A program made the position numbers and the translations under genes. The notes beneath the pieces are model-generated. The model was not told the DNA's origin, searched no databases, and saw only the letters and a program-made list of their open reading frames with translations. Positions 2,395 to 64,000 of a DNA stretch of 64,000 bases are shown piece after piece; the first letter of the stretch is position 1, and the number at the start of each line of letters is the position of its first letter. Source of the stretch: Laetmonice hystrix (Eukaryota); NCBI GenBank assembly GCA_965235115.1, contig OZ249436.1, positions 5,272,001 through 5,336,000 on the forward strand, given 5' to 3'.

Positions 2395-5300
2395 CATCTG
2401 ATGGTAGAATAACCGCTGCGTTAATCTTAGGCCACATAAAACAATAAAGTTGGTGGTCACCCCTACCTGACCTTGGAAAGCAGCCAAGGCCCAGATTTAA
2501 AAAAAAATGTATTTAAAAAAAAAACTCAAAAAATGTGGGAAACATGTGCCAGAAGGGCACTGATATTTGAATACAATGCATTTCTGTGCTTTCAAACCCG
2601 TTCGTTCCTTGCGGAGGCATACATGATACATTGTCGGAACCATTCAGCAAGAGCCACCATTGTGATGGATGGCTCTCGGCAGTATCTTCCACATGCAGTA
2701 TGAGGGAACATATTTGGGTAAGAGTCAGTTACCCAAAAAAACGGGGAATACAACGTGACTGGATGTAAAGGAAAGACCAATTACAGACGGTGTTAGTTTG
2801 GCATAAACCCTCGAGTAATCATGCCATTCTTTGGGGGGGCTGAGTGAAACATATCAGTCTTGTGAGTTGTGACCCCTGCTGAGTAGCAGATATTCGGTTC
2901 ACCATGACTGGGCAATCATCACCTGGTCCTGGGTTAAAATCTGCATCAATCTGTGTGTAAATTGTATCTAGGAGACAGCCGGACTCATGGTCAGGGGCTG
3001 TTTCGGACTCACGGACTCCCATCGAAATTGACCCCTGCAAATACTCATTATAATTGGCTATGTACAGTTTTAATTTATGGTTAAAACGTATGGTGACAGA
3101 GAACAGTCTTCTACAGCTCATTTTATATATATATTTTTAATTATTTAAAAAAATTTAAATATATTTTATACTTATTATACATGTATATTTAAAAGGCTGC
3201 TGAATATTATCCAAATAAGTTAGATTTTTTGTGAAATATTAAAAGTTAAAATCATATGCAACAATTTTTCTAATTGTCACAGATCTCTAAATATGAAATT
3301 AAGATACCAAAAGTACATTTTATAAATGTCAAATGGAAAAGAAAAGAAAAGACATTGCCTAAAGGTTTAAGCTCCGCATTTGATAAGTGAAAAATAAACA
3401 GATTATACCTCAAATATATTTTGAGCTGTATTGCACAGTAGGCCTAGATGATGATTAAATTCTGCTGGAATAGTATTTGTCAAATCTATCCATAAATTAT
3501 ATAATTGCTCCAAAAATAATCTGGATTTTGCCCCAAGGATGAGATGGATGGCTTTGGGACAGCTACTTCAGATAGCCAGTACTTAAAGAAACATGGTGAC
3601 CTAGAACGATCGTATGACAGGTAATAGTCACTCTGAATCATGAGGTAAGTTAATTTCCGAGGTTGAAGATTGCATGTAGAGGGGTAAAAATAAAGGATAA
3701 AACTCATGTTAAAATAGAGAAACTTGTATTGGACGAGGCGGCAAGTGATGCAGCCTGAGATAAAAAGCTTGGTGGACTGCCAGCTTCCCAGCTGAGTGAC
3801 GAAAAGTTGAATTTTTCTACCCTGCAATGCATAGTACCAGCCAGCAACAAGCATTATGGTACCAACGACTAATATTATACTAGTATACTGAGAACAGAAT
3901 GACCCCAGATGTTTTCATGCTGTATGTCCTACAGTCATTATCCAAGGTTCTTTTTTATTCTTACGCAGTATAAACTTTTTTCTTTCCACCTCATTTCTCA
4001 ATGGCATACAAGAACACAGGTTAGTTTACTGGTCAAGACTAAACCATGGAACATTGGTCACTGGCAGAGGGGTCCTAAAAACAGCATTTGACCCACTTTT
4101 ATTGATATGCTAATCATTTTAGTGCTGACTTGTCAGGTTGCTGGGTTAGATCACTGACCCTCCACCCCCTGTACTAATACTGCAGCTGTGCAACTTCCCA
4201 TGGCCTACATAGAATGGCACCATCCATTTGGGACAGAGGGTGGGCCCTCACGCAGTGTTTGTATTGTAACCTGTATATGGCGCTACAACCGCCTGTATTG
4301 TGTAGGCATTTCTGGAGTGGGTTAGACCATTGTGTAGTCCACTACTGAAATATCTTTGATCACATGCACTTGGCCTGTGCCACATGGTCCTCAAAACGGC
4401 AGTCTACATTATAATGGAGATAGTGCAGCAGGTATCGCCACATCAGGACTGTTCATGTTTCTGATCCTCCATGTGTCAGAAACACGATCCCAGCAGTATT
4501 TCTTCTGTTAGCTAATACGTAAAGGGAAAGACACCAATGGATATCAGAGTTGGAATCGTAGAAGTTGGAAGCAGTTTATCAGACTTTATCCAGCTCCATA
4601 TCGGGCAGCTTTTTTCCCTTGGATCCCTCGGAAGCATTCTGCAAGAGATACGTACAAATCAAGGCTGACATTGAAACATCTGGAATCTTGATCAGCGGCA
4701 AACACGTGGAGTTGATGAGTGGTGATTGGATACATACCCAATGTGTGCGGATAAGTTTGTCCCCTACCATCATGAGTACGCACCACTGCCGGTCAATGAC
4801 CTGGACTACTTCCCTGACTGCACAAACAAGTTTGGACAGCTCCCATGGGAAGATCTCATGTAGGAACCTTCTCATTTAGTTGCCAGTCGTAAGATTCTTT
4901 CATTGTGTCAAAAAGTCCATGCATGAAATTGCACATGTATATTTTACGTACATGTTTGTGTAAAGGTTACCAAAGTTACACACAAAATCTTAATTTCCAC
5001 ACAAAGAGATGCGTGCGTTTCCACGTTCATGGAAAGCAAATCAAGCAAATGGAAAGCAAGGGTAATATTTCAATTTATATTTGATCCCTTTCACATTTTA
5101 AACTGTCTGCCCCAGCTGTGCAGCATAATTTACAGGCAGACACATATAAATTTATGTGCACAACTGGTAATTTCCACCCACAGATGTCCAGCAAAGTAGG
5201 TCGTGGGTCATGAGGTATGTGTTAATCTAGCACTTGTAGCATAGGTAGGCATTTGTAGCTGCACAGACTGAAACTGATGAGGAAGATGTTGAGTATGGGG

Positions 5301-6395: not shown

Positions 6396-6636
6396 GGGGA
6401 TGACCGTGACCTCGGGAAGTGTGTCCCTGAGAAAGGATACTCAGAACTTGATTGGTATCAGTATAGGTGGTGGCGCCCCACTCTGTCCCTGTCTCTACGT
6501 CGTCCAGATCTTTGACAACACTCCAGCAGCCAAGGATGCGACGTTGGCAGGTGGCGATGAGATCGTGGGTGTCAATGGCCAGTCAGTTAAAGGTCGCACC
6601 AAGGTCGAAGTGGCCAGGATGATCCAATCAGTCAAG
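6396..6636 (+). CDS. PICK1: PICK1 exon, PDZ domain
   Basis: Acceptor tttcag|G at 6395/6396 (phase 2), donor AAG|gtaaga; encodes NLIGISIGGG and CPC motifs. Confidence 0.96.
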
Positions 6637-9600
6637 GTAAGAGACTGGGAATTTAAAAGTAAGAAAATATTGTAATTGAAACCTGGTATTTGAAATCAAT
6701 TTGTAATCAATCAAAGTCATGTGCAGGGTTGTTTATTTTCAGACCGGAGAAGTGATTATCAATTACAACAAACTTCATGCTGACCCCAAACAAGGAAAGA
6801 CCCTAGATATAGGTAGGTACAACAAGTGAGGTATTGTGCATAGGGCACACACAGCTGACACAAGTCATGTATGATCATGACAATTGGAGGTAAAGTAACA
6901 AACAAACAAAAAGAGAATTGGTGCATAGTTAGTAATAAAAGGCAGGGAAATACGATGTGAGAACTGTCACTCGTGCAAAATAATGTTTCCCTTTATATAA
7001 ATAGTATGCATTTTTTTATCTTCAGGTTTCATGAGAGTTTTAAAAATCAGGTCTTTTTATGCAGTTGGTTGATCTTCTATTTCAGTGCTGAAGAAGGTGA
7101 AGCACCGAGTAGTGGAGTCGATGAGCTCTGGCACAGCTGACGCATTGGGCTTGAGCAGGGCCATCCTCTGTAATGATGGTTTGGTGCGTAAATTGGAAGA
7201 ACTGGAAAAGACGGCAGGCATGTACAAGGGGCTGATGGAGCACACCAAGAAATTACTGAAGGCATTCTTTGAGCTCTCACAGGCACACAAAGGTATGCAT
7301 TCTAGGCACAGACGATATAACACTAGTCAAGTTGATCAGTCTACTTTCAGTGATGTAATTTTAAGGTACTGTTAGTAATTTTTGTTGTATTCAGAAGTGT
7401 ATACACTACAGATAATAACAGAATTTTTGTATTGTTATTTACTCTAAGGAAAGTTCAATTTTCGAAAATTTTCAAGACACGTTCCCTTAAGAATAGTAAT
7501 GTTATTACTTTAATTATTCTACAATGAAGTGTATATATGGATATCAGTTCTGGATAAAACGATTAACTTTGACAAGATCTGTGCCATGTTTACTGACCAG
7601 AAAGAACTGATATTGAAAAACCATGGAGATATCATTAAGTTACTGGCATGTAAGCCAGACTATTGTCATCAAGTGGGGACTTCCTGGTGTCATTGTTGTC
7701 GGTCAGTGTCACATGGTAAATCTATTGTACAGCTCTAAAATACCCTCCCTATCTCGGCTTGTTGTCACAAACGTAGTGGGTTTTGAAATGTATGTAAACT
7801 ACAAGAAACATTTGATTTGGAATAAGCTTGAAATTTAATATTAATTTATTTTGGGTGAATTTATTCACTTATTGCAGCATACAAATATAAGAAGTAGAAG
7901 TGTTTATTTGAATTGTAAAAATGTTGGACATGTTTTTAGTCCCCAATGTGCATGAGGTACATAAGTAAACCGGTCCTGGTCCCAAGGTTACTTCTCCAGT
8001 TCCTGGTCTCTGTTGTCAAGGTTACCTGTCTGGTTATCTTGACAGGTCCTGGACCCTGTTGCCAAGGTTACCTGTCTGGTTATCTTGACAGGTCCTGGAC
8101 CCTGTTGTCAAGGTTACCCGTCTGGTTCCTGGTCCCTGTTGCCAAGGTTACCTGTCTGGTTACCTTGACAGGTTCTGGACCCTGTTGCCAAGGTTACCTG
8201 TCTGGTTACCTTGACAGGTTCTGGACCCTGTTGCCAAGGTTACCTGTCTGGTTACCTTGTTCTGGACCCTGTTGCCAAGGTTACCTGTCTGGTTACCTTG
8301 ACAGGTTCTGGACCCTGTTGCCAAGGTTACCTGTCTGGTTACCTTGACAGGTTCTGGACCCTGTTGCCAAGGTTACCTGTCTGGTTACCTTGACAGGTTC
8401 TGGACCCTGTTGCCAAGGTTACCTGTCTGGTTACCTTGTTCTGGACCCTGTTGCCAAGGTTACCTGTCTGGTTACCTTGACAGGTTCTGGACCCTGTTGC
8501 CAAGGTTACCTGTCTGGTTACCTTGACAGGTTCTGGACCCTGTTGCCAAGGTTACCTGTCTGGTTACCTTGACAGGTTCTGGACCCTGTTGCCAAGGTTA
8601 CCTGTCTGGTTACCTTGACAGGTCCTGGTCCCTGTTGCCAAGGTTACCTGTCTGGTTACCTTGACAGGTTCTGGACCCTGTTGCCAAGGTTACCTTTCTG
8701 GTTACCTTGACAGGTTCTGGTCTCTGTTGCTAAGGTTACCTTTACGTTTAGTATTAAGGTATTCATTGCATGATGACGCCCACTCATTCCCGCATTATGA
8801 TATTGGGTGTACCTGTGATCCTCGTGCACTCTCTCTGTCTACATCAGGGTGGATTTCCCATGGTAACTAGCACAGAACCAAACAACCTACCATTTTATAA
8901 CAAGAGCTGACCTTATTATGTTACCATGGGGGATCGTGTATGTATCTGTGGTTGCCTTATCCCTCTCTTCCAGCCTTTGGAGACGTGTTCTTTGCTATTG
9001 GTGTACGTGAACCCCAGCCCAACGCCAGCGGAGCATTCACTCAGTTTGGTGAGGCTCACCGGGAGATTGAACGCTATGCAATCCGCATGCTCAAAACTTG
9101 CAAACCTGTAAGTGAATGTTGACCAGCCATTGGTCATAGCCTGTCTCAGAGATAGACCCTTGATGTAGTATGTGTCTGGTTGGCTGCTCACAATTTTCAC
9201 CCAGCCCCCATTTAAGTAAAAGTTTTTTTGGTATTGTATGAAGTATCATCCTGGCTATTCACAGAGTTAACTTAGGGTCATGGGATGTCATATGGTGGCC
9301 AGCCAATCAGACACGTATAGTAGAGAACATATAATCTCACACACTCTGCACACGTCAAGGCAGTGATGCAAATAACCCCTGCCCGCCCGCCCACCCACCC
9401 GGCCAACATACTGCCTGATGGAAAAGGCCTCGTTCTTCTGGAGCTTTGGTTGTTTTCTCTTACACCCACCACAGTACAACACTGCATGTGGATTTCAAAC
9501 AAGCACGTTTTGGTTTGATCAGCCCCCAACTGGCAGATGGTGGATTTCGGCATTCAGGAATAAAAGAATGATTTTTAGTACAGAACTAATACATTTACCG

Positions 9601-12600
9601 CCTGAGTCTAGTTTGGGGCTGTGTCGCTTTTATATTTCAGTTTGCTTATGTTACAAAAATTGCCTGGTTAGGCTGAAGTTATGTGAACGAGGGCTCCACT
9701 TCTGGCATATTAATGTACTTTCAGAATTTGGAGAGGTATTTGCAGCCATAGGGGTGCGGGAACCACAGCCGAGTGCCAGCAAAGCCTTCAGCGTTTTCGG
9801 AGAGGCACACAGGCAGATAGAACGTTATGCCATCAGCATGCTCAGAACCTGCCGGCCTGTAAGTCTACAATGTGTGGACCGAGTGACTCACCTTAAGGCC
9901 GCATACTCCCACTCAAAGAATTAGAAGAGTTTTTATTTACGTTTTGAACCTTGTGAATCCTGAGCTCCCCAATCCAATCAACTCTATCCTGTCCAAATAG
10001 CAGGAGGCCCAGCCACCCTTTCCTGACCTGTTCATGAGACCCAGCCACCCTTTCCTAACCTTATAAAACCTGACCTGTCCAGGAGACCCAGCCACCCTTT
10101 CCTAACCTTATAAAACCTGACCTGTCCAGGAGGCCCAGCCACCCTTTCCTAACCTTATAAAACCTGCCCTGTCCAGGAGGAGACCCAGCCACCCTTTCCT
10201 AACCTTATAAAACCTGACCTGTCCAGGAGGAGACACAGCCACCCTTTCCTAACCTTATAAAACCTGACCTGTCCAGGAGACCCAGCCACCCTTTCCTAAC
10301 CTTATAAAACCTGACCTGTCCAGGAGGCCCAGCCACCCTTTCCTAACCTTATAAAACTTGACCTGTCAAGGAGGAGACCCAGCCACCCTTTCCTAACCTT
10401 ATAAAACCTGACCTGTCCAGGAGGAGACCCAGCCACCCTTTCCTAACCTTATAAAACCTGACCTGTCCAGGAGACCCAGCCACCCTTTCCTAACCTTATA
10501 AAACCTGACCTGTCAAGGAGGAGACCCAGCCACCCTTTCCTAACCTTATAAAACCTGACCTGTCCAGGAGGAGACCCAGCCACCCTTTCCTAACCTTATA
10601 AAACCTGACCTGTCCAGGAGACCCAGCCACCCTTTCCTAACCTTATAAAACCTGACCTGTCCAGGAGACCCAGCCACCCTTTCCTAACCTTATAAAACCT
10701 GACCTGTCCAGGAGGAGACCCAGCCACCCTTTCTTAACCTTATAAAACTTGACCTGTCCAGGAGGAGACCCAGCCACCCTTTCCTAACCTTATAAAACCT
10801 GACCTGTCCAGGAGGAGACCCAGCCACCCTTTCCTAACCTTATAAAACCTGACCTGTCCAGGAGGCCCAGCCACCCTTTCCTAACCTTATAAAACCTGAC
10901 CTGTCCAGGAGGAGACCCAGCCACCCTTTCCTAACCTTATAAAACCTGACCTGTCCAGGAGACCCAGCCACCCTTTCCTAACCTTATAAAACCTGACCTG
11001 TCCAGGAGGAGACCCAGCCACCCTTTCCTAACCTTATAAAACCTGACCTGTCCAGGAGGAGACCCAGCCACCCTTTCCTAACCTTATAAAACCTGACCTG
11101 TCCAGGAGGACACACAGCCACCCTTTCCTAACCTTATAAAACCTGACCTGTCCAGGAGGAGACACAGCCACCCTTTCCTAACCTTATAAAACCTGACCGT
11201 GAAATTGGTCCTGTGTAGATCAAATGAGCAAAAAATCAAAAGCCCAGTGGCATTAATATTAGAATTGCTAGATCTTGTGACTAAGTTCTGCACATTCTTA
11301 GCTTATGTAGAGCAAATGTCAGTTAACCATAAATCACGCGGTGCTGGTACATTGAACACATAGGCAGTAGGTTAGTGCTTACTAACAGGGGCACTGCTAG
11401 TGTTGTAGGTATAGTTAATGCCTTACTTACACATATATCATGTTATGAGGGAATATGAGAGGCCAACAGCATACAGCAGATATCCTACTGGTTAAGAAAA
11501 ATCTGGTGCAAAAAAAGGCAGGAAAGAGGTGCATTTTCAAAGGTTTTTCATGATTGCTTATATCGTTGGATCTTTACCATTTTATATGTGAGCAGGTAGT
11601 AATCCTAGAAGTATGGATGTAAGAGTCTAATGACACGCAGGAAACAATACGGCAGAACAGTTGCCTAATATGGACCGTATTATTTACAAGTAGACAGGAA
11701 TTTGGTCATCTTTTTGAAAAATAAATGTGGACGTTGGCCTGGTACTATTTAAATATCTTACAGTTACAGTACAATGCTTGAGTAATACGTGTACATGCTT
11801 CATTTAGTTTATATACCAGGTAGCTTCCGTTGGGAGTATTAAACGTGAACAACAGGCCATCGCCTGAGGCTGGCGACATGAAGACATTCATAGGCGTAAG
11901 AGCCTGGGGGAAGTCCCCCCCCCCCCCAATTCAGTCAAAACTGAGGAAAATTCGGGCAAGGCAAAAAGAAAAAAAATCGGACAGCATTTTCGGGCAAATG
12001 AACCCCCATGAAGACATTTGTCATATTATACGTTCAGACTATCTGACGTTCGAGTTCATGTCTTTTCAATTACCACACGGGTGGGGGCATCGTTTCCTGG
12101 GGACTTGTATAGATATGTGAATATTCAGGGAAAGTCACATTAATGGAAAATAACCTCAATTAAGTATTTCTCCCCCTTGTGCCTCTAAAAATGTGTCTTT
12201 GAGGAGTTCTGCCCAAAGGCAAGGTGTTTGCTTTGGATATAAGTGTGACCTTGTTTTCAGATGATTAGTGACCTCAACACGTATCTGAACAAAGCTGTCC
12301 CCGACACGAGGCTCACCATCAAAAAGTACCTGGACGCTAAGTTTGAATACCTGGTGAGACACATTTAGAATACTCTGATCAAACTAACAGGGTTCGTGTT
12401 ATAGGCCCTGTCACACCTTGCTGGATAGCATAAATGGATCATCTCCGTTTGCATGCATTTCTTGACCGTTTCTCGTTCGCCAAATGCGTTCCTTGTCAGG
12501 CGAAGTCTGTTCAATCCAGAGAAACGCCTGAGGGCATCGAGTAGCAACGGAGACGACTTTCACCACCGGATGGTTAATTTTTACCAAGTTTCTCTCCGTC

Positions 12601-13689
12601 GCACGTCCGTTTATGCTATCCGGCAAGGTGTGACAGGGCCATTAAGGGCCAGGGTTTCCGGAACTTCTCAACAGAAACCCAGAGTCTGATTCCAGGCTTA
12701 CTCAGTTTTAAAGTGTTTTTAAAGTGTTCCTTATATAATAATAAAACAGTGGTGGATGGTTTAAATTAGATGGGTTATCTAGAATAGTGTTTGTATGATC
12801 CTAAGCCTTGTTTAAATATGAAATCTGTAATCTCCTCCTAGTCGTACTGTCTGAGGGTAAAGGAGATGGATGATGAGGAGTACAGTTATGCCGCCTTACA
12901 GGAGCCCCTCTACCGGGTGGAGACTGGCAACTACGAATACAGGTAACGACACCTGGAGGGGATCAGCGGTACTATGGGCGGTCTCTCTCCACCAGGGGGC
13001 GCGCACGTATTAGCGCGATCAAACGAATGCATGTAACTAGGTTGTACAACGAGTGAAACAAAATAAATCCAGTTTGCTGCCTGTTTAAACAGGATGCGAA
13101 ATGATTAGAGAAAGGTCCGACCCTGAGGTTAATGGGTGATGATCTTAGACAATGAGTTCACTTGACTAGGGCCCACACAATGGTAAATGTTGGACATTAC
13201 TATGATTACATGGTTTGTTTTTGTTTTGCTTGCAGATTGATCCTGCGATGTAGACAGGATGCACGGGGAAGGTTTGCAAAGATGCGTTCTGATGTCTTGG
13301 TTAAGATGGAGCTTTTGGACCAAAAACATGGCAAGTCTTACCTTCACCTGTCCTTATGTAATTGATCACAGTGATGATTTTTTTGTATAAAATTCCCCAT
13401 CAGAGGGAGATCACCATTAATAAAAGGTTATGTGTATTTTTCCGATGCAGTCCAAGACATCGTGTTCCAGTTACAGCGGCTGGTATCAGCGATGGCCAAG
13501 TACCATACTGACTGCCACTCGGTCCTGAAGGAGGCGGACGTCTTCCCGATAGAAGTCGACCTATCGCGGAGTACGTTTACTTACGATACATCCAACCAGT
13601 TCAACGACAACGAGGACGACGAGGAGGAGGGTGAGGAGGGGGAGGAGGCTGTGGATGACACTGACGTGGACCTCATAAGTACTGAATAA
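6396..13689 (+). CDS. PICK1: PRKCA-binding protein PICK1 (PDZ + BAR/arfaptin-homology domain), multi-exon; 5'-most coding exon not securely identified
   Basis: Spliced translation gives GMTVTSGSVSLRKDTQNLIGISIGGGAPLCPCLYVVQIFDNTPAAKD...HADPKQGKTLDIVLKKVKHRVVESMSSGTADALGLSRAILCNDGLV...DLNTYLNKAVPDTRLTIKKYLDAKFEYLSYCLRVKEMDDEEY...ELLDQKHVQDIVFQLQRL...DVFPIEVDL plus an acidic tail, matching PICK1 throughout. Exons 6396-6636, 6743-6812, 7086-7292, (8974-9107 or 9725-9858), 12261-12353, 12842-12942, 13236-13330, 13451-13689 have consistent phases. Confidence 0.97.
6743..6812 (+). CDS. PICK1: PICK1 exon, end of PDZ/linker
   Basis: tttcag|ACC...ATA G|gtaggt; TGEVIINYNKLHADPKQGKTLDI. Confidence 0.95.
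7086..7292 (+). CDS. PICK1: PICK1 exon, linker/start of BAR
   Basis: tttcag|TG CTG AAG...AAA G|gtatgc; VLKKVKHRVVESMSSGTADALGLSRAILCND...SQAHK. Confidence 0.96.
7970..8742. repeat. Intronic minisatellite, ~46-bp unit (41-bp variants), ~17 copies
   Basis: Tandem ggttacctgtctggttaccttgacaggttctggaccctgttgccaa. Confidence 0.95.
8974..9107 (+). CDS. PICK1: PICK1 BAR exon, alternative copy A (134 nt)
   Basis: ctctcttccag|CC TTT...AAA CCT|gtaagt; (A)FGDVFFAIGVREPQPNASGAFTQFGEAHREIERYAIRMLKTCKP. Confidence 0.93.
9725..9858 (+). CDS. PICK1: PICK1 BAR exon, alternative copy B (134 nt)
   Basis: acttttcag|AA TTT...CGG CCT|gtaagt; (E)FGEVFAAIGVREPQPSASKAFSVFGEAHRQIERYAISMLRTCRP. Confidence 0.92.
10001..11197. 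repeat. Intronic minisatellite, 47-50-bp unit, ~24 copies
   Basis: Tandem cccagccaccctttcctaaccttataaaacctgacctgtccaggag(gag)a. Confidence 0.95.
12261..12353 (+). CDS. PICK1: PICK1 BAR exon
   Basis: ttttcag|ATG ATT AGT GAC...TAC CTG|gtgaga; MISDLNTYLNKAVPDTRLTIKKYLDAKFEYL. Confidence 0.95.
12404..12640. mobile_element. Intronic MITE (PIF/Harbinger-like ends), 237 bp
   Basis: ~35-bp TIR ggccctgtcacaccttgctggatagcataaatgga / tccgtttatgctatccggcaaggtgtgacagggcc; AT-rich flanks, TSD unclear. Confidence 0.8.
12842..12942 (+). CDS. PICK1: PICK1 BAR exon
   Basis: ctcctag|TCG TAC TGT...TAC AG|gtaacg; SYCLRVKEMDDEEYSYAALQEPLYRVETGNYEY. Confidence 0.95.
13236..13330 (+). CDS. PICK1: PICK1 BAR exon ending at a GC donor
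   Basis: ttgcag|A TTG ATC...CAT G|gcaagt; LILRCRQDARGRFAKMRSDVLVKMELLDQKH. Confidence 0.93.
13451..13689 (+). CDS. PICK1: PICK1 last coding exon with acidic tail and stop
   Basis: tgcag|TC CAA GAC ATC; VQDIVFQLQRLVSAMAKYHTDC...EDDEEEGEEGEEAVDDTDVDLISTE, TAA at 13687-13689. Confidence 0.96.
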
Positions 13690-55726: not shown

Positions 55727-58700
55727 TTAAATTTTTAAGAATACTGCATCATGATAACTGTAATATGTTTGTAATACTCCACAGTTTTTGAAATCCACAT
55801 TTTTGACATAGATCACATCTATCAGGGTATTTCCTAGGGTCGTTCCTTGGGTGATTAATTGTTGGTAATTATTGCGAGACATGACATTTTTGATTGTGTT
55901 CTGGCCTTTCATTAAATCTTCATTGAAGTCACCAGCAATTACATAACCCGAATCCTTTACGGTTTCTTCCATTTTCTGTATAAGGTCTTCGAGAGCTGGA
56001 CAGAACAAGTTTGTGGAGTATCGGGACGGGCGGTAAATTACACAAATAGTTAATGGTTTTTCATCAGTGACCAACACAACTGGAATGAATTCAAGGTTTC
56101 TGACAGACAGATGTAGAAGACTATGTGTGATTGTTTTTCTCACATATACTGCCACACCACCTTTTTCAAGCTTTGCCATTGATTTAATATCATAACTTTC
56201 TTGTCTTGTTTTGGATAAAAGATTAAAGTCTGGGTGCTGCAAGTTTGATAGATCTTCACGAGTAGCGAGCCACGTTTCTGTCAGTAATACAACATCTGAA
56301 GTAAATATCTGGAAGTGATTTCTTGTACTTTGAAAATTCTGAACCAATCCTTCAACATTGTGGTGGACAATTAGCAGCCTCCTTTCTGCAATATCAAGTT
56401 CATTTGGTACGAGTGGTTCCATTAGTTCCAATCCCTGTGCAACTCCTTCGTTCCTGTATATTTTATCGGCATTGTAATCTAGGAGATAGAGACCAGCTAT
56501 GTTTGTGACTCTAGAAAGGGCAACATAAGCATGTCCAGATTCAAACATAGTTTTCATGGAGATCACTATTTTGTCCACTGTGAGACCTTGCACTTTGTGT
56601 ATTGTACATGCCCAAGCTAATCTCAATGGAAACTGTCGCCTGATTCCTCCTTTTCTTTCTTGTTCTACAGGATCCAGAGATTCTTCATATGGCATTACTT
56701 TCACTGAACCTATTGGAACTGTGCCGTTATTCTTTTTTTCAGTCAATGCACGGCCAACTTTTTCATTGTCAAATTTAATACACACTGCTTCTGGTAAAGG
56801 TTTACCGTGTTGTGCAGGTAATATGGCAGTTATAGTTCCTATGGCACCATTTGTTATTCCATGTTCAGTGTCAATGTTCTTTGTTACCATGACTCTTGCG
56901 CCAACTGCTATTCTTAAACAACTGGGTAGGCTGTCACTTTTGTCATTGGATTTCTTTGCTGCCCTTTCCTCCAGTTTTGCAGTCTTTTTGTTTCGGATCA
57001 CATCAATAGCTCTAATATCACAGATCTGAGTGCACTTACTTTGTAACATTGTTTCATTGTGTTCATCTACCTCCTTATTTTTCGCATAGATAAACAAAGC
57101 ATCTTGTGGACATTGGTCAGATGGGGTAATTCGTGATAACAGTGTCTTTGTATCGGATTCACTCAAACTTTCAGTTTTTGGTTTTGTTCTGAGCCGATTC
57201 AACAGTGCTGCGAACACGGCGTCTTCTTTTTGTCTCATTATTTCTGTAAGTTCAACATACCTGAAGTATTGCATCCACAAATCACAGGTATTTGGTACAC
57301 AAATTGGTGAACCGGCCCTTACAGGTGGAAGCTGATAGAAATCGCCAACAGCAAGAACAGATACACCTCCAAAAAGTTCTTTACTATGTTTCAGTTGTCC
57401 CAATCGTTTGTGCACATAATTCAGTATGTTGCTTCCCATCATTGAAATTTCATCGATTACAAGAATTTTGATTTCACATAAGGTTGTATTCATGGTATTT
57501 AGGACACTTTCAGTCAGTGGTATGTATGGGCCTTTGCGGGGTTTAATTATTTTGAGTAGAGAATGAACTGTGGTTCCATCAACATTGAAGGCAGCCAGTC
57601 CGGTAGTTGCTGTCAGGAATACTGGTGGTAGGTTCTGCTCACTTTGTTGCCCAAGTAGAATTTTGGTAGCTTCATAGCAGATACATTTGATTAAGAGCGA
57701 TTTTCCAACACCTGCTGCACCACTAAGGAATATTCTAAACGGTTCAGGGCGTTCACCATTGACTTTATCTAGGCACCACTTTCGTATTGTGTAAAATACC
57801 TGTTGTTGTTTTTTATTCATACTCTTTAACATCGGCCTAACAGCTTTGGTAACACATCCATCAACACTGTGGTCAATAGCAAGTCCTCCTGGGATATTTC
57901 CTCTGTCCTCATCACCAATACAGTCGTGATCGTTTGCTAATGGTTCATCACAGCACTCTTCAAAAGCTAGGTTTTCTCGTTCTGCTTCCAATCTACTTAT
58001 CTCCGCTTCATTAGCAATGCTGGCCCATGCATCTTCCAAATTCTCAGAATTTTGCATCATTTGCCATGCTTCCTGCAAGACATCGGTATCTTTTTCATAT
58101 TTCTGCCTATTTTGAGTCACAATCAGTTTCACAGGTTCTATGTCATGGTCCTCACTCACTCTGACTGCTCCGTTTTCAAAGAATTCCTCATATGTAGCAT
58201 ATGCTTGGGGCTTTAATTGACACTTGTGTCTCCATGGCAAGTAAACCTTCATTTGAGCTTGATAATATTTCTCTGGTTTTGTTGTCTTGGAATGCCTGGG
58301 GTACCGAATCACAGCAAAGTTTTCACTTCTTCTTTTCTGTATAATACCACAATTGTTTGTCAGTGTAATTGTATTTCTACTCTTTGCCTGTCCATAAACC
58401 ATTCTGTACTCTGAAGCAAACTGAGCTAGACACATGTTATCAAATTCCACAGTATCAGGTCGTGCTTGGTATCTATCTATAATGTTTTTCATCCAGATTT
58501 CATCATCATCCTCATTTGATTTTGCTTTTGCTTCGATTTGTGATAATGGTAGACTCATTCTTGTTGCATTTTCATCCACTGGTAGGTTAACAACTGCACG
58601 AGAGCATTCTTTCAAGTGTAGATTACACATGCGATGTGCGGCTTCCTGACAACTTACTTCTCGGTAGTTCAGGTACACATTTCCTAATTTCCTCATTTCA

Positions 58701-61700
58701 GTTTTCAAGTCAATATTACCTTCTTTGAGCTCTCTTTGAGCATTGCGTAGAATTTCTGACAGTTCATGCTCAGCTTTACTGATGTATGACAGAATGTACA
58801 TAACACAACTGTATGGGTCTGTGATGTACTGTATGTCCATGTTAGCATTCCAGATGTCAAGGAGAGCTGGGTTGTGAGGATTTGTCCAACAGTCTTTATA
58901 CTCTCGTTTCATTACTATAGATATTTTCTTTGTTGCGATATCGAAATACTTTTTATATGTTTGCCATGTCAGTCCTGCTTTTTGCAAGAGCTCATCAATA
59001 GATGCATCTTCATTTCCAACATCTTCATTCAACAGGTCTCTGAGTTTTGACAATTGTTCTGAGGCATGATGCATGTCTGCCTTGCTTGGTGACTGTCCGT
59101 CAGGCATGGTTGCAGGTCTTGATACAAATGTCCTCTTTGCAACTGGTTTTGGGAAGTTGAATCTACATGGGCGATTCCCCTTTTTGCATGATTTTGTATG
59201 ACGCTTACTATGTTTCTGAAAGCGGTTCACCTTTTCATGCAATTCGTCACCTTCAGGTGGAACTTGACACGAGATGTACTGATCGATAAAGTCACATACA
59301 GTTTGGTCTGAATCTCGGTCTAAAATTGGTGCATCTTTTACCCAGAATAAACAATGTATATGTGGACTTCCTCTTGCCTGCCATTCAACTCTGTAAAAAT
59401 GATCAATGACTTCACCTATTGGTTTTGCTGGAGACATTATCACTTCATTGAGGAACAGTTTTACTCTGTGATCAAACATACGTGCACAAGTAACGGGATT
59501 GGATGCTAGAATGTTGCACTTTTCTTCCCATGACAAAGAATCAACATCAACTGTTTCTCCCTGCTGAGCTTTTATAGCAGTCACAATTTCAGGCCAATCA
59601 TTGTTACAGCTAAATGTACAAAAGAATGTTGGAATACCAAGTTGTCTGATCATGGCAAACAAATCGTGTTGGGTCATTTTCCAATAATCTGGTGAACCTT
59701 TCAGTGTGGGAAAATGTCGGAAACCTGTATCTTCTCTCGTAACATGATCGATACCTTTTCTCTGAGATAATGTGCCTGCTGTTATCTTCCTTCCATCTTT
59801 TGTTTGCTTTCTTCCCTTTCTCAGTGCAATGGATATGTTGCTGGCCATGAATTTCAATTCTGTGATGTACAACGCAAAGAATATGTATTGTGGGTCCTTG
59901 GCAAAACGGTTATCTACGTTCATTAGTCTGGCCTGGAAATATTTTGATGGGGATAATTCAACTGATCTTTCTTCTGTTAAAGTATTTCGACCATCTGGGA
60001 AATGATTTGGAAATGCAAGGGCTTCACCTGATTTGTTTGCATACAAATTCGTGGGTCTATTTTTTTCACATGGTGCAATAGACAAAATACTATCTGGACA
60101 CAATGGTAAGGCCTCCTGGACCATGTCAACAGGCATGAGGAACGTGTCTAATAGAGGTCCTGTTTTCACCTCCTCACACTCATTGTCATCATCATCATCA
60201 TCATCGGACACAATCTTATCAGTATTCTCAGTGTGGGAAGTTCCATTCGTTCGTTGCTGATCAGTCTCAGCAGTGTCAGGTTTATCACTGTCGTATTGCA
60301 CATGTCTTGATTGATCAATTTCAATGTCTGCATAATGTACATTTGCAATTTCTTCTTTTAAATATCTAAGAGCATCGTGAACTTTTTTCAAATCAACTTG
60401 CTTGTACTCATAATGACCTTCATATGAAAGCCTTCGTTTCATTTTGAGCCGAATGATTTGATCCGTGTCAAACCTGGGTAGACTATTTATTGTATCTTGC
60501 AAGTCTGACGGTACCAAAACACATGGGCCTTTTAGTTTTTTTTGGCCACCTTTTGGTAATGTGATGAGTTTCATGAAGGGTACGATTCGCGATATGAGGT
60601 GTTTCTCCAGTATGTTCAATGTTTGGAGTTCATGGGGTAGTGGCTGCAATTCCAATCTGTTTGTGTATGCTTCGTGTGGCATTTTCCCAGCCTTCAAATA
60701 TCTGTCGCACGTATGACATATGTACAAATCTCTCCGTGATTCCCTCAGTACATCACCACTTTGTGTGCACTTTGGATTATAATTGTGTAATAGATCTTCA
60801 CTAATGCAGGCTTTAGCCAAACGTTTCTGAGTAGCAGAAGTTTCATACTTTGTGTTATCGCATTTCAGAACCTGTTTTTTGAAAAGCAGTCTATGGCAAA
60901 CTGAACAGACATATTCTGGGTATTCCTGGACTTTGCTATGAAAAATAGTTTTCACGTTTTGAATCTTTTTACGCTGTTGATTATTTTGTTCCTTCCTTTG
61001 ACAAGCCTTCAGTCTAAGTGCTATAACATTTCTCAAGTACTGGCGTCTTTTCATCTTTTTCATACGCTTCCTTAATACAGGATCAGTCATGGTGGCTAGG
61101 TATTTCAACAGCGCTGATTTTTTTTTCTGTTGCTGATATTGAACATTGGTTTGGTATTTTAATCTCTGTGCCTCATTTATTTTTGACCTGAACAATGCAT
61201 TCTGTCGGTACTTTATCTTGCTGTAACTTTTCACCTTTTGTCTAAAATCCAGATTTTGTTTGTATTTCTGAGAACTGTAACTTTTCAGCTTTTGTCTAAA
61301 ATCCAGATTTTGTTTGTATTTCTGAGAACTGTACCTTTTTGCCTTGTTTTTGAAATCCAGATTTTGTTTGTATTTTTGTGAACTGTAACATTTAATTTTG
61401 TTTCTGTATGTTTCATCAGTTGCATACTTTGTCTTACCATACTGTAAACATTTTTCTCGGTAACTTATATGACTTGCGTATTTACATTTTTTTGATCGAC
61501 TTTCGTTTCCTTTAATCTCTAAATTGAGCCTTCTTTTTTGTGTGTATTGTCTTCCATTTTCTTTAAATTCCAAGTCTAGTCTTCGTTTTCTCATGTATAT
61601 GCGTTCATCTTGTTGGAAACCTGAATCTAGTCTACGTTTCTTGATGTATTCTCGTTCATCTTGTTGGAAGTCTGAATCTAGTCTTCGTTTCTTGATGTAT

Positions 61701-63970
61701 TCTCGTTCATCTTGTTGGAAGTCTGAATCTAGTCTTCGTTTCTTGATGTATTCTCGTTCATTTTGTTGGAAGTCTGAATCTAGTCTACATTTCTTGATGT
61801 ATTCTCGTTCATCTTGTTGGAAGTCTGAATCTAGTCTACGTTTCTTGATGTATTCTCGTTCATCTTGTTGGAAGTCTGAATCTAGTCTTCGTTTCTTTAT
61901 GTATTCTCGTTCATCTTGTTGGAAGTCTGAATCTAGTCTTCGTTTCTTGATGTATTCTCGTTCATCTTGTTGGAAGTCTGAATCTAGTCTTCGTTTCTTT
62001 ATGTATTCTCCTTCCCTTTTTCGGAAACTTGCATCTTGACGCTTTTTGTTAATGTATTCCTGGTCAGCATGTTTATTTGCTAGATTGAGCCTACGTTGCT
62101 TCTTGGACTGTCTTTCAGTCTCTAGGAATTGGCTATCTGATCTTCTCTTTCTCATATATTGTCTCATGTATTCTTTTCTGTCACGTGTTTCAAGTTCAGT
62201 CTTTTGATTATTTCTTTGAGCATGGTCTGCTGGGGGCAAGTCTTCCATAGAGCTGCCAACACTGTTTACAACTGTTAAGGCAACAAGTCGACAACGTGTA
62301 ACACTTTTCTTCATGTTTTTTAGCAGTTTTTCGATAACCTCACTGACTTGGTCTACACTTTTGCACACAACAAGCATGGCTTTCCCAAGATGTGGTTCTT
62401 TTACGTTGTACGGACTGGGAGTAAATACAACCCATGAGTCATGTTTTGTCTTCAAGGCAGTAAGGAAGCAGTTTTCTGTGGATATAATCAGGCTGTTTGA
62501 AACAGAAAAGGCCTTTTGAACCTCACTGCAAAGATTAGTGCTTTTTTGCCTTCGAGTTTTCATACCACCGCTCAAAACAATGTCAACAGACTGTATTTTT
62601 TGCACAACAGAGGATCTGTCAGTTTGTTCATGCAGTTTAACCACTGCTTTCTCGATATTGTTTGTGTCAACCTTTACCTGTGATTTGCTACAAAGTCGAG
62701 CCCCCTCTAGAAGTATATAGTTAACATCAGAAGGATGATATTGTTCACAGTTTGTTAGATACATGAGACTTGTGAGCGCATTACTCAGTGACAATCTTTG
62801 TTTATTGTACTGTGAAAAGCAATCATCGGCTTGACTTATGTTACCATAGACAACATCTTTATAGATGTCAGTGTCACAGGATTTATTTGAAATCATTCCA
62901 TGGCTTTGCAGTGGTTCAGACAGATGGGGTATTTTATTGGTTGACTGTTCATCTTGCTGATCATGGACTGTTAATTCTTTGTCTGTTCTATGCGTGTCAG
63001 TAGGTTCAGTTAAAATTGAAAATCGGTTGGAACATTGAATTCCATGAGAGTTCTTACAGATGGGATCTGATAATTGAACATTTTGCACTGGCTGTACAAC
63101 AGGCACATCACTTCTTTCCACAAACCTTTTAGTTCTCACACCAGAAATCATAGACAGGTTCCCATCATCATGTTTTATCTGTACTGGTTGCATTTCGTAT
63201 CTGACAGTACATGGATCATTTGTAGTACTACACACAAATTTCAGTAGCTGGTCTTGTAATTCTGTCAAGGTGGTGAAACACATAAATATGGCAGTTCCAT
63301 TGCAAGTTTGCTGACCTTGTATATCTCTTGAATGAGAGTCAAAGAGGCAGAATTTTCCTTTACAATTCAGGAATACACTGATGGCTTCAAGACCTATGAT
63401 AATGAGACCTGCATTGTGTCGATCAAACGTGTCTTTTACAGCTTCAGCAAGTGATACATTGTCATCATCAATGCTGACACAGGTACCCAGTGAGAGGTCA
63501 CTTTCGTTCATATCACACACAAACTGACTGCTGCCACTTTCTAAATGACGGGAAAGATCATTGAACGACAGATAATCATCTGGTACATGAACCCTTTGTT
63601 CTCTTATTTTGTTCCGAACTTTTTCATATACAGTAGAACCTTCAATTAGAACTCTATCAACGTCAGCTGTTGAGACATTTCTCATATTCTGAAGCCTTTC
63701 AATGGCTACTACGGCAGCACCTACACAAAATCTACCTCTGACATTGTCTGGAAATTTGACATTCCCCTGGTGCATACTGCCTGGAACAACACATGTTTCA
63801 AGATCAATATCTGAAGTTTTACCATGAGCAGAACAGCAGTCACTTGATGGGGTTTTGGAACTTGTATTACTTGTAGTCCTTTTCACATCTTGTACAATGT
63901 TAATGTCCTCGACAGCCAGTTTGGGTTGTCTATTTGTCGTTTGCTGCTCTGGTACATTTGTAGATTGCAT
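55727..63970 (-). CDS. Helentron Rep/helicase/endonuclease polyprotein (at least 2747 aa, N-terminus probably outside the window)
   Basis: HUH Rep motifs PTFFCTFSC, YRVEWQARGSPHIHCLFW, YILSYISK. PIF1 SF1 helicase motifs GAAGVGKS, IDEISM, GDFYQLPPV, LTEIMRQ, QFPLRLAWACTIHKVQGLT, YVALSR. C-terminal APE/EEP endonuclease motifs HNVEGL, LTETWL, GGVAVY, IYRP, GDFNED, IDVIY, YSYH. CxxC...CxxC Zn finger. No stop in frame from 63970 to 64000. Confidence 0.96.
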   Translation of the reverse strand: MQSTNVPEQQTTNRQPKLAVEDINIVQDVKRTTSNTSSKTPSSDCCSAHGKTSDIDLETCVVPGSMHQGNVKFPDNVRGRFCVGAAVVAIERLQNMRNVSTADVDRVLIEGSTVYEKVRNKIREQRVHVPDDYLSFNDLSRHLESGSSQFVCDMNESDLSLGTCVSIDDDNVSLAEAVKDTFDRHNAGLIIIGLEAISVFLNCKGKFCLFDSHSRDIQGQQTCNGTAIFMCFTTLTELQDQLLKFVCSTTNDPCTVRYEMQPVQIKHDDGNLSMISGVRTKRFVERSDVPVVQPVQNVQLSDPICKNSHGIQCSNRFSILTEPTDTHRTDKELTVHDQQDEQSTNKIPHLSEPLQSHGMISNKSCDTDIYKDVVYGNISQADDCFSQYNKQRLSLSNALTSLMYLTNCEQYHPSDVNYILLEGARLCSKSQVKVDTNNIEKAVVKLHEQTDRSSVVQKIQSVDIVLSGGMKTRRQKSTNLCSEVQKAFSVSNSLIISTENCFLTALKTKHDSWVVFTPSPYNVKEPHLGKAMLVVCKSVDQVSEVIEKLLKNMKKSVTRCRLVALTVVNSVGSSMEDLPPADHAQRNNQKTELETRDRKEYMRQYMRKRRSDSQFLETERQSKKQRRLNLANKHADQEYINKKRQDASFRKREGEYIKKRRLDSDFQQDEREYIKKRRLDSDFQQDEREYIKKRRLDSDFQQDEREYIKKRRLDSDFQQDEREYIKKCRLDSDFQQNEREYIKKRRLDSDFQQDEREYIKKRRLDSDFQQDEREYIKKRRLDSGFQQDERIYMRKRRLDLEFKENGRQYTQKRRLNLEIKGNESRSKKCKYASHISYREKCLQYGKTKYATDETYRNKIKCYSSQKYKQNLDFKNKAKRYSSQKYKQNLDFRQKLKSYSSQKYKQNLDFRQKVKSYSKIKYRQNALFRSKINEAQRLKYQTNVQYQQQKKKSALLKYLATMTDPVLRKRMKKMKRRQYLRNVIALRLKACQRKEQNNQQRKKIQNVKTIFHSKVQEYPEYVCSVCHRLLFKKQVLKCDNTKYETSATQKRLAKACISEDLLHNYNPKCTQSGDVLRESRRDLYICHTCDRYLKAGKMPHEAYTNRLELQPLPHELQTLNILEKHLISRIVPFMKLITLPKGGQKKLKGPCVLVPSDLQDTINSLPRFDTDQIIRLKMKRRLSYEGHYEYKQVDLKKVHDALRYLKEEIANVHYADIEIDQSRHVQYDSDKPDTAETDQQRTNGTSHTENTDKIVSDDDDDDDNECEEVKTGPLLDTFLMPVDMVQEALPLCPDSILSIAPCEKNRPTNLYANKSGEALAFPNHFPDGRNTLTEERSVELSPSKYFQARLMNVDNRFAKDPQYIFFALYITELKFMASNISIALRKGRKQTKDGRKITAGTLSQRKGIDHVTREDTGFRHFPTLKGSPDYWKMTQHDLFAMIRQLGIPTFFCTFSCNNDWPEIVTAIKAQQGETVDVDSLSWEEKCNILASNPVTCARMFDHRVKLFLNEVIMSPAKPIGEVIDHFYRVEWQARGSPHIHCLFWVKDAPILDRDSDQTVCDFIDQYISCQVPPEGDELHEKVNRFQKHSKRHTKSCKKGNRPCRFNFPKPVAKRTFVSRPATMPDGQSPSKADMHHASEQLSKLRDLLNEDVGNEDASIDELLQKAGLTWQTYKKYFDIATKKISIVMKREYKDCWTNPHNPALLDIWNANMDIQYITDPYSCVMYILSYISKAEHELSEILRNAQRELKEGNIDLKTEMRKLGNVYLNYREVSCQEAAHRMCNLHLKECSRAVVNLPVDENATRMSLPLSQIEAKAKSNEDDDEIWMKNIIDRYQARPDTVEFDNMCLAQFASEYRMVYGQAKSRNTITLTNNCGIIQKRRSENFAVIRYPRHSKTTKPEKYYQAQMKVYLPWRHKCQLKPQAYATYEEFFENGAVRVSEDHDIEPVKLIVTQNRQKYEKDTDVLQEAWQMMQNSENLEDAWASIANEAEISRLEAERENLAFEECCDEPLANDHDCIGDEDRGNIPGGLAIDHSVDGCVTKAVRPMLKSMNKKQQQVFYTIRKWCLDKVNGERPEPFRIFLSGAAGVGKSLLIKCICYEATKILLGQQSEQNLPPVFLTATTGLAAFNVDGTTVHSLLKIIKPRKGPYIPLTESVLNTMNTTLCEIKILVIDEISMMGSNILNYVHKRLGQLKHSKELFGGVSVLAVGDFYQLPPVRAGSPICVPNTCDLWMQYFRYVELTEIMRQKEDAVFAALLNRLRTKPKTESLSESDTKTLLSRITPSDQCPQDALFIYAKNKEVDEHNETMLQSKCTQICDIRAIDVIRNKKTAKLEERAAKKSNDKSDSLPSCLRIAVGARVMVTKNIDTEHGITNGAIGTITAILPAQHGKPLPEAVCIKFDNEKVGRALTEKKNNGTVPIGSVKVMPYEESLDPVEQERKGGIRRQFPLRLAWACTIHKVQGLTVDKIVISMKTMFESGHAYVALSRVTNIAGLYLLDYNADKIYRNEGVAQGLELMEPLVPNELDIAERRLLIVHHNVEGLVQNFQSTRNHFQIFTSDVVLLTETWLATREDLSNLQHPDFNLLSKTRQESYDIKSMAKLEKGGVAVYVRKTITHSLLHLSVRNLEFIPVVLVTDEKPLTICVIYRPSRYSTNLFCPALEDLIQKMEETVKDSGYVIAGDFNEDLMKGQNTIKNVMSRNNYQQLITQGTTLGNTLIDVIYVKNVDFKNCGVLQTYYSYHDAVFLKI

Positions 63971-64000
63971 GACGTTAGGTTTGGTGGATGTGCTGTTGGT

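Follow-up and report, generated by a model that had tools for sequence, protein, structure and literature searches.

Evidence for a mutually exclusive pair of BAR-domain exons in PICK1 of Laetmonice hystrix, a segment also swapped between annotated isoforms of Tubulanus and Branchiostoma

The mutually exclusive exons catalogued in human genes (PMC5740500) and treated in an earlier review (PMC3342872) are neighbouring, similar in sequence, equal in length and in the same frame. In 377 (60%) of the human clusters the exon length is not divisible by three, and independent duplications of exons in several bilaterian lineages are described for tropomyosin, Dscam and ion-channel genes (PMC3342872), such that a duplicated, either-or arrangement is common and in itself unsurprising. 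AMPA-receptor trafficking and the biogenesis of secretory granules are controlled by PICK1, which switches between homodimers and heterodimers with ICA69; how this switch is itself governed is described as unresolved (PMC3635858). The present analysis concerns the single, complete PICK1 gene on the forward strand of a 64,000-nucleotide (nt) stretch of the Laetmonice hystrix genome (assembly GCA_965235115.1, contig OZ249436.1, positions 5,272,001 to 5,336,000), hereafter the window, in whose numbering all coordinates are given. It contains two adjacent exons, A and B, which resemble the human clusters in each of these respects, including a length not divisible by three. The gene shares with PICK1 of vertebrates, and with the arfaptin/ICA69 BAR family, the combination of a PDZ domain, an arfaptin-type BAR domain and an acidic tail, but vertebrate PICK1 has one form of the segment in the sequences examined (five lamprey proteins, 15 of the 380 members of one tetrapod cluster and one vertebrate-like locus), as the initial annotation of this DNA had stated. 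In the literature searched, outside the scope of which most subscription journals lay, no report of a mutually exclusive or duplicated PICK1 exon was found, nor any paper on the PICK1 isoform pairs of Tubulanus or Branchiostoma described below.

The best overall explanation, and a very probable one, is that A and B are a real, expressed and selected mutually exclusive pair that originated in an old tandem duplication. An internal PICK1 exon would have been duplicated long ago and both copies retained, with the donor of exon E4 joined to either A or B and then to E6, which at the level of contigs and sequence would yield two PICK1 proteins of equal length. The borders, lengths and phases of the pair (Table 1) are as initially annotated, with ag before and gtaagt after both copies, which are identical at 95 of 134 bases and 34 of 45 residues (34 of 44 whole codons; the split first residue is A in one and E in the other). 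The description of both acceptors as good stands for A, where 18 of the 20 preceding bases are pyrimidines, but less so for B, where only 12 of 20 are. Both peptides match the Pfam Arfaptin profile, A at positions 73-114 (E = 5.5e-05) and B at positions 73-112 (E = 2.7e-05), values that fall below the whole-protein cut-off as the peptides are fragments; the gene as a whole has Pfam PDZ and Arfaptin matches. Across the 627-Mb genome, the exon peptide matches only A and B.

Evidence for splicing comes from four sequencing runs of one sample (X1-X4), none of them recorded as RNA, which were aligned over positions 8745-10030 in 30 bins. Three runs (X1-X3) are DNA-like, covering all 30 bins and placing each exon within its own intron flanks. 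The fourth, for which the record gives no library type, was taken as RNA because its contigs are spliced and free of introns: it covers 8 of the 30 bins, those of exons A and B only. X4 yields exactly two spliced contigs of 191 nt each, E4-A-E6 and E4-B-E6, in which all four junctions that the initial annotation had listed for checking are present. The former continues from 8972-9107 into 27 bases of E6, and the latter passes from 28 bases of E4 into 9723-9858; their depths, 35.6 and 44.4, say only that the two forms are of the same order. No junction from A to B is found among the X4 contigs, although these represent one sample and contigs can drop rare forms. By our own arithmetic, an unbranched bubble arm has exactly this length when the words are of 31 letters (30 + 131 + 30 = 191), so no third path leaves the end of A or enters the start of B above the assembler's filter. 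This clean two-arm bubble shows that joining of A to B is rare or absent.

The reading frame points the same way. With either A or B alone, the frame is open for 392 amino acids from E2 to the stop, whereas it ends after 225 amino acids when both are included (a TAG at 9749) and after 174 when neither is; transcripts of the latter two kinds carry an early stop with at least three exon junctions downstream. The properties by which the human clusters were recognised (PMC5740500) are observed here: A and B are neighbours of similar length and sequence, in the same frame and without an in-frame stop; both bridging junctions (A to E6, and E4 to B) occur in X4; and a joining junction, allowed only where joining shifts the frame, is absent from X4, the inclusion of both exons in any case being frame-shifting. 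Skipping both is likewise unproductive by frame. The contigs and frames thus bear out either-or splicing, but the earlier description of it as obligatory was too strong, as the frame only makes inclusion of both or neither unproductive.

The divergence between the copies suggests both age and constraint. Identity at the three codon positions is 37/44, 37/44 and 21/44, and only 4 of 17 fourfold-degenerate sites agree. The proportion of differences is 0.737 at synonymous (pS) and 0.142 at nonsynonymous sites (pN), a ratio of 0.19 (bootstrap 0.08-0.33), and the synonymous sites are saturated. Together with the absence of similarity above shuffled sequences between the flanking introns (four comparisons, p = 0.13-0.66), this sustains the original proposal of an old duplication with heavily diverged third positions and both copies under purifying selection, for which a comparison of nonsynonymous and synonymous rates had been suggested. 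Among the DNA-like runs, none of the 22 single-base differences between alleles or runs falls within the 268 exonic positions of the 1286 bases surveyed, where about 4.6 would be expected (p ~0.006, by our own arithmetic and for one individual), and none of the four small indels lies in either exon. Furthermore, an open frame on a genomic contig of a second genome (P0255) retains the 45 residues of B unchanged (45/45). As its in-frame intron read-through around exon B differs from that of the window, P0255 probably belongs to another species. A few codons of read-through on either side of exon B (window 9859-9900) do resemble P0255; these translations hint at conserved intronic sequence near the acceptor and donor of B.

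The swap of this segment is not peculiar to L. hystrix, as it is shared by annotated isoforms in Tubulanus and Branchiostoma. A filter applied to 281 fetched proteins of at least 224 residues, retaining pairs at least 97% identical outside the segment with at least five differences inside, returned 24 pairs: one from Tubulanus, 20 from Branchiostoma and three from sharks and rays, the last being differences between species that were dropped. The Tubulanus polymorphus isoforms (XP_074647383.1 and XP_074647384.1) are identical at 299 of 299 aligned residues outside the segment and 35 of 45 within it. Equal-length swaps confined to the same 45 residues, the aligned protein being otherwise identical, are found in B. 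floridae (XP_035694991.1/XP_035694992.1), B. belcheri (XP_019615628.1/XP_019615629.1) and B. lanceolatum (XP_066291619.1/XP_066291621.1); in these species and a hybrid, the paired isoforms are identical at 31-32 of 45 positions. The alternative copy has one sequence in all four Branchiostoma taxa and differs from its partner from the first residue on, but the last 16 residues of the two copies are identical. Between lineages, copies of the segment match at 20-35 of 45 positions. All of these isoforms are automated RefSeq annotations of 'PRKCA-binding protein-like', known here as proteins. In Tubulanus each alternative segment is paired with a different N-terminus (P0047 and P0048), which would fit promoter-coupled exon choice, whereas the Branchiostoma pairs share one. 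Sequences of the type found in Paralvinella, which start with D or E and have Ser at 223, were considered as 'B-type' exons, but this is unsupported, no partner isoform having been found.

No swap was evident in the fetched annotated isoforms of oysters, mussels, abalones, snails, Lingula, Lineus, hemichordates, a crinoid, horseshoe crabs, scorpions, ticks or lampreys, only part of the members being examined in protein clusters of more than 15. Of 37 metagenome loci, 12 were informative, the segment forming a separate exon there and both neighbouring exons being visible, and it is single-copy in all 12. In two of these loci a different PICK1 exon is duplicated. The equivalent of E8, the start of BAR helix 3, is present in L003 as three open 95-nt copies in tandem, each bounded by ag and gt (L003:5800-6401), with 22-26 of 31 residues in common and diverged third positions; they are a candidate three-way mutually exclusive cluster. 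In L005, two tandem 90-nt copies of the exon linking the PDZ and BAR domains (L005:1860-2097) are identical at 60 of 90 bases and lie 58 nt apart, a spacing that would fit steric exclusion.

The consequences of the swap were assessed on a structure modelled for the Tubulanus protein (pLDDT 63.7 on average and about 70-90 in the BAR helices), in which helix 1 ends at residue 194 and is followed by a three-residue turn and helix 2 (198-277). In this model the exon corresponds to residues 183-227, and would thus take in the final 12 residues of helix 1, the whole turn and the first 30 residues of helix 2. In human numbering, which was checked on published landmarks in three vertebrate relatives (R158, R185, R197, R247, 271-DDEE-274 and E293, all in register), the exon spans residues 186-230. 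The nearest solved BAR domain is that of arfaptin-2 (1i49, 4dcn): searches of the PDB returned structures of the PICK1 PDZ domain but none of its BAR domain, and the exon A peptide alone gave no match. The two isoforms would have the same PDZ domain and tail, differing around the hairpin of helices 1 and 2 at 11 of 45 residues (186, 189, 192, 202, 205, 208, 209, 216, 223, 226 and 229). Both A and B keep every invariant residue, including R197, which lies within the swapped exon and which, in the AlphaFold model of PMC8884907, contacts the ICA69 monomer, although R197Q did not abolish binding. Six of the eight differences in helix 2 fall on one heptad stripe (at 100 degrees per residue, p = 0.021 against a uniform expectation and 0.053 when background variability is taken as the weight; p = 0.001 at 102.9 degrees, a value chosen once the pattern had been noticed). 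Of the 127 distinct background segments, 125 have E at position 205, where A has G and both B and Tubulanus X1 have K; F192 of A occurs in none of the 127. The charge changes initially reported between the copies are real, but the net charge of each segment is the same, +1.

As these changes spare the invariant core and lie mostly on one face of helix 2, the isoforms are likely to fold alike and differ in their surface. Such a difference might tune the choice of partner (homodimer, ICA69 heterodimer or oligomer) or the shaping of membranes, a suggestion for which the balance falls slightly on the side of doubt. A switch between homodimer and ICA69 heterodimer has been described for PICK1, with the choice in vertebrates depending on ICA69 and calcium rather than on splicing (PMC3635858, PMC9201945), and the L. 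hystrix genome encodes both an ICA69-type gene (C29) and a third gene of the arfaptin family (C4).

The rival explanations differ greatly in plausibility. The tandem arrays flanking the pair, the possibility that the DNA runs derive from the assembly's own sample and the absence of a single piece spanning both exons could all be taken as signs of an assembly artefact, or one copy might be a dead pseudo-exon, but practically no credence can be given to either idea: silent sites are saturated, which also means that the pair is not a duplicated haplotype, both frames are open, both copies are spliced in X4 and B is conserved in the second genome. The outcomes that the initial annotation named as fatal to its proposal, a copy never spliced or a pair created by assembly, are accordingly contradicted, the latter also by the complete coverage in the DNA-like runs. 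As for how exclusion is achieved, the donors (gtatgc, gtaagt and gtaagt) and ag acceptors are by inspection all of the major class, and incompatibility of U2 and U12 sites was rejected as there is no minor-class signal on either side. Steric exclusion, which requires less than about 50 nt between donor and branch point (PMC5740500), is not evident for an intron of 617 nt: the branch-point-like word closest to B precedes it by 15 nt and is some 600 nt away from the donor of A, while another, 12 nt after that donor, is separated from B by many AG dinucleotides. It seems fairly likely that the strong acceptor of A and the weaker one of B would compete under the direction of splicing factors, with nonsense-mediated decay clearing transcripts that contain both or neither. 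Exclusion through competing RNA structures of the docking/selector kind, or through a distal branch point, appears improbable in comparison. Some observations would suit it: there is no A-B junction in X4, the only branch-point-like word of A lies 67 nt upstream within a possible hairpin loop, the pyrimidine tract of A (8946-8964) can form a 19-nt imperfect pairing with exon B (9750-9768; -28.7), and the stem at 9168-9318 has a z-score of -2.70 for 241 nt chosen around it. However, this stem, which is the best duplex found, barely exceeds shuffled sequences (-36.3 kcal/mol, where the top hits of ten shuffled scans range from -27.2 to -35.4), covers no splice site and has a pair broken by one allele; the pairing of the tract with B is within the shuffled range, and the fold around the acceptor of A is ordinary (z = -0.25). 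The search of the introns for docking/selector pairing that had been advised likewise gave, over the non-repeat regions, nothing clearly above ten shuffled scans. Inverted repeats are dominated by the 46-bp array (best 25 of 125 considered), and a single 31-nt pairing of 71% between the 46-bp and 50-bp intronic arrays is present among the matches listed. Joining reads were found in only 22% of human frame-shifting clusters (PMC5740500), implying that an active block of unknown kind is also common.

Two further alternatives concern history and function. In an exon-level tree of 45 residue columns, in which 2 of 33 branches are starred and five groupings were tested, both lancelet copies cluster with sequences from deuterostomes (81/84), opposite every spiralian copy (93/90). 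The lancelet duplication would then be independent, unless gene conversion hid an older event, and it seems likely that bilaterians have duplicated the same segment two or more times, with one event in lancelets and one or two in spiralians. A single ancient bilaterian or spiralian duplication, which most lineages then lost and gene conversion homogenised in part, is unlikely, if not negligibly so. It would account for the residues that B shares with Tubulanus X1 (K205 and S223) and with the alternative amphioxus copy (E186); neither the grouping of B with Tubulanus X1 (p-AU 0.46) nor that of both with Branchiostoma X2 (p-AU 0.22) is rejected, and PMC5740500 cites ancient clusters that were lost from myosin genes. 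Yet each pair carries the marks of its own lineage, as in the shared last 16 residues and deuterostome affinity of the amphioxus copies, the 12 informative loci are uniformly single-copy, and the lack of a swap in molluscs, a brachiopod, hemichordates, a crinoid, chelicerates, Lineus and lampreys would demand many losses; duplications of other PICK1 exons elsewhere indicate a general tendency. A stronger contender, if still the less favoured, is that the exons are truly mutually exclusive but near-neutral, both being kept because each is spliced and has to form a BAR domain that works, while no difference between the isoforms is under selection. At ten of the 11 differing positions single-copy relatives vary as well, and net charge, core and R197 are unchanged. 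Against this, both copies have abandoned a residue kept in 125 of 127 segments, with Tubulanus X1 showing the same E-to-K change as B; B is identical in the second genome; the segment has been duplicated in three phyla; and the alternative amphioxus copy is the same in four taxa while altering five conserved columns.

Several points nevertheless weigh against the interpretation of A and B as a selected, recurrently evolved pair. Evidence from RNA comes from a single run of one sample, in the form of contigs, and so offers no tissue and no reliable ratio, and the surveyed stretch (8745-10030) excludes E4 and E6, such that a form skipping from E4 to E6 could not appear. The heptad stripe was noticed before it was tested, is weaker in Tubulanus and is not followed in Branchiostoma (2/7). 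With only position 205 of the 11 differences in a column conserved at 95% or more, an equal net charge and the same core and R197, the isoforms may be nearly equivalent. None of the groupings of origin is rejected by the 45-column tree (p-AU 0.18-0.48), within which Spiralia are internally unresolved. Tandem exons in Tubulanus and Branchiostoma are inferred from proteins alone, and the identical last 16 residues in Branchiostoma mean that the swapped unit there may be shorter, or homogenised. Overall, the observation of the A/B pair in the initial annotation is confirmed, and its interpretation is supported with the refinements given above.

Table 1. Features of the PICK1 gene and its introns in the window
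Feature	Position	Strand	Basis
Coding part of probable alternative first exon (long N-terminus type)	4741..4859	+	similarity to N-termini of relatives
E2, PDZ domain	6396..6636	+	Pfam PDZ, E 4.8e-10; reading frame
E3, end of PDZ domain	6743..6812	+	reading frame
E4, upstream constitutive exon, linker and BAR helix 1; donor joined to A or B	7086..7292	+	frame; X4 contig ends match its last bases
46-bp tandem array, intronic, 16.5 copies, upstream of exon A	8003..8741	.	
Exon A, alternative, 134 nt, phase 1 to 0	8974..9107	+	borders, frame, X4 contig E4-A-E6
GT-AG intron between A and B, 617 nt	9108..9724	+	
Possible 18-19 bp stem in A-B intron, masking no splice site	9168-9187 with 9300-9318	+	duplex scan, borderline against shuffles
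Exon B, alternative, 134 nt, phase 1 to 0	9725..9858	+	borders, frame, X4 contig E4-B-E6, peptide in P0255
50-bp tandem array, intronic, 23.8 copies, downstream of exon B	10036..11198	.	
E6, downstream constitutive exon, remainder of helix 2; receives A or B	12261..12353	+	frame; its first 27 bases close the X4 contigs
E7, end of helix 2 and acidic loop	12842..12942	+	reading frame
E8, start of helix 3; GC donor	13236..13330	+	reading frame
E9, last coding exon to stop region, end of helix 3 and acidic tail	13451..13689	+	reading frame

Elsewhere in the gene, the donor of E8 is of the GC type (gcaagt at 13330-13331). The two probable first coding exons resemble the short and long N-termini of relatives; the short acidic one ends, in L038, 64 bases before the window begins, and its Tyr two places before EEDK is found in the two named annelids of the set with this N-terminus and in one tick, but differs from both nemerteans and from the molluscs, brachiopod, hemichordates and lancelet shown. 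Outside the alternative exon, the protein is 92% identical to Tubulanus PICK1, while the best-matching named relatives for the exon peptide are annelids; in the backbone tree it clusters with three proteins at 64% support, which does not fix the phylum. A search for erythrocruorin linkers gave no hit, nor did its controls. From the Tyr residue and the exon matches, the sequence itself points to a spiralian that is probably an annelid. The region of E4 is divided by an intron in several related loci (e.g. L003-L009, L024), which seems to have been lost in the lineage of the window. Isoforms of Acanthosepion (P0067 versus P0066 and P0070) differ by three residues at the end of the E7 equivalent, the aligned core being otherwise the same, possibly through another alternative exon or an annotation quirk.

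Elsewhere in the window, a satellite array occupies 16400-50113, with scattered copies from 16400 and a regular structure from about 23900 to 50100; its monomer of about 853 bp forms a 1707-bp two-monomer higher-order repeat, with about 98% identity between higher-order units and 95% between the two monomers. Nothing was found in the window, satellite included, with Rfam. On the minus strand, an uninterrupted frame of at least 2757 codons (55730-64000) contains Helitron_like_N, DUF6570, PIF1 helicase and exo/endonuclease-phosphatase domains and is apparently an intact endonuclease-bearing element of the Helitron type.

If the duplications are indeed recurrent, PICK1 would join the short list of genes whose exons duplicate repeatedly. 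It would resemble tropomyosin, another coiled-coil-like protein with alternative first exons (PMC3342872), although, unlike the tropomyosin and Dscam cases, the sample is small, the present exon being duplicated in three lineages and other exons at two loci. A bolder proposition, and at present a rather improbable one, is that exon duplication keeps recurring in PICK1, as a hot spot that has gone unrecognised, affecting this exon in an annelid, a nemertean and lancelets and other exons in two more lineages, in which the charge reversal at E205 has converged in two spiralian phyla and splicing hard-wires the choice between homodimer and ICA69 heterodimer, or of membrane shaping. Were this true, the surface by which partners are selected would be marked out by these natural variants, in a choice that vertebrates make with one protein. 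The pairs from three phyla in any case represent ready-made, evolution-tested swaps of one BAR segment, among the positions of which E205 stands out.

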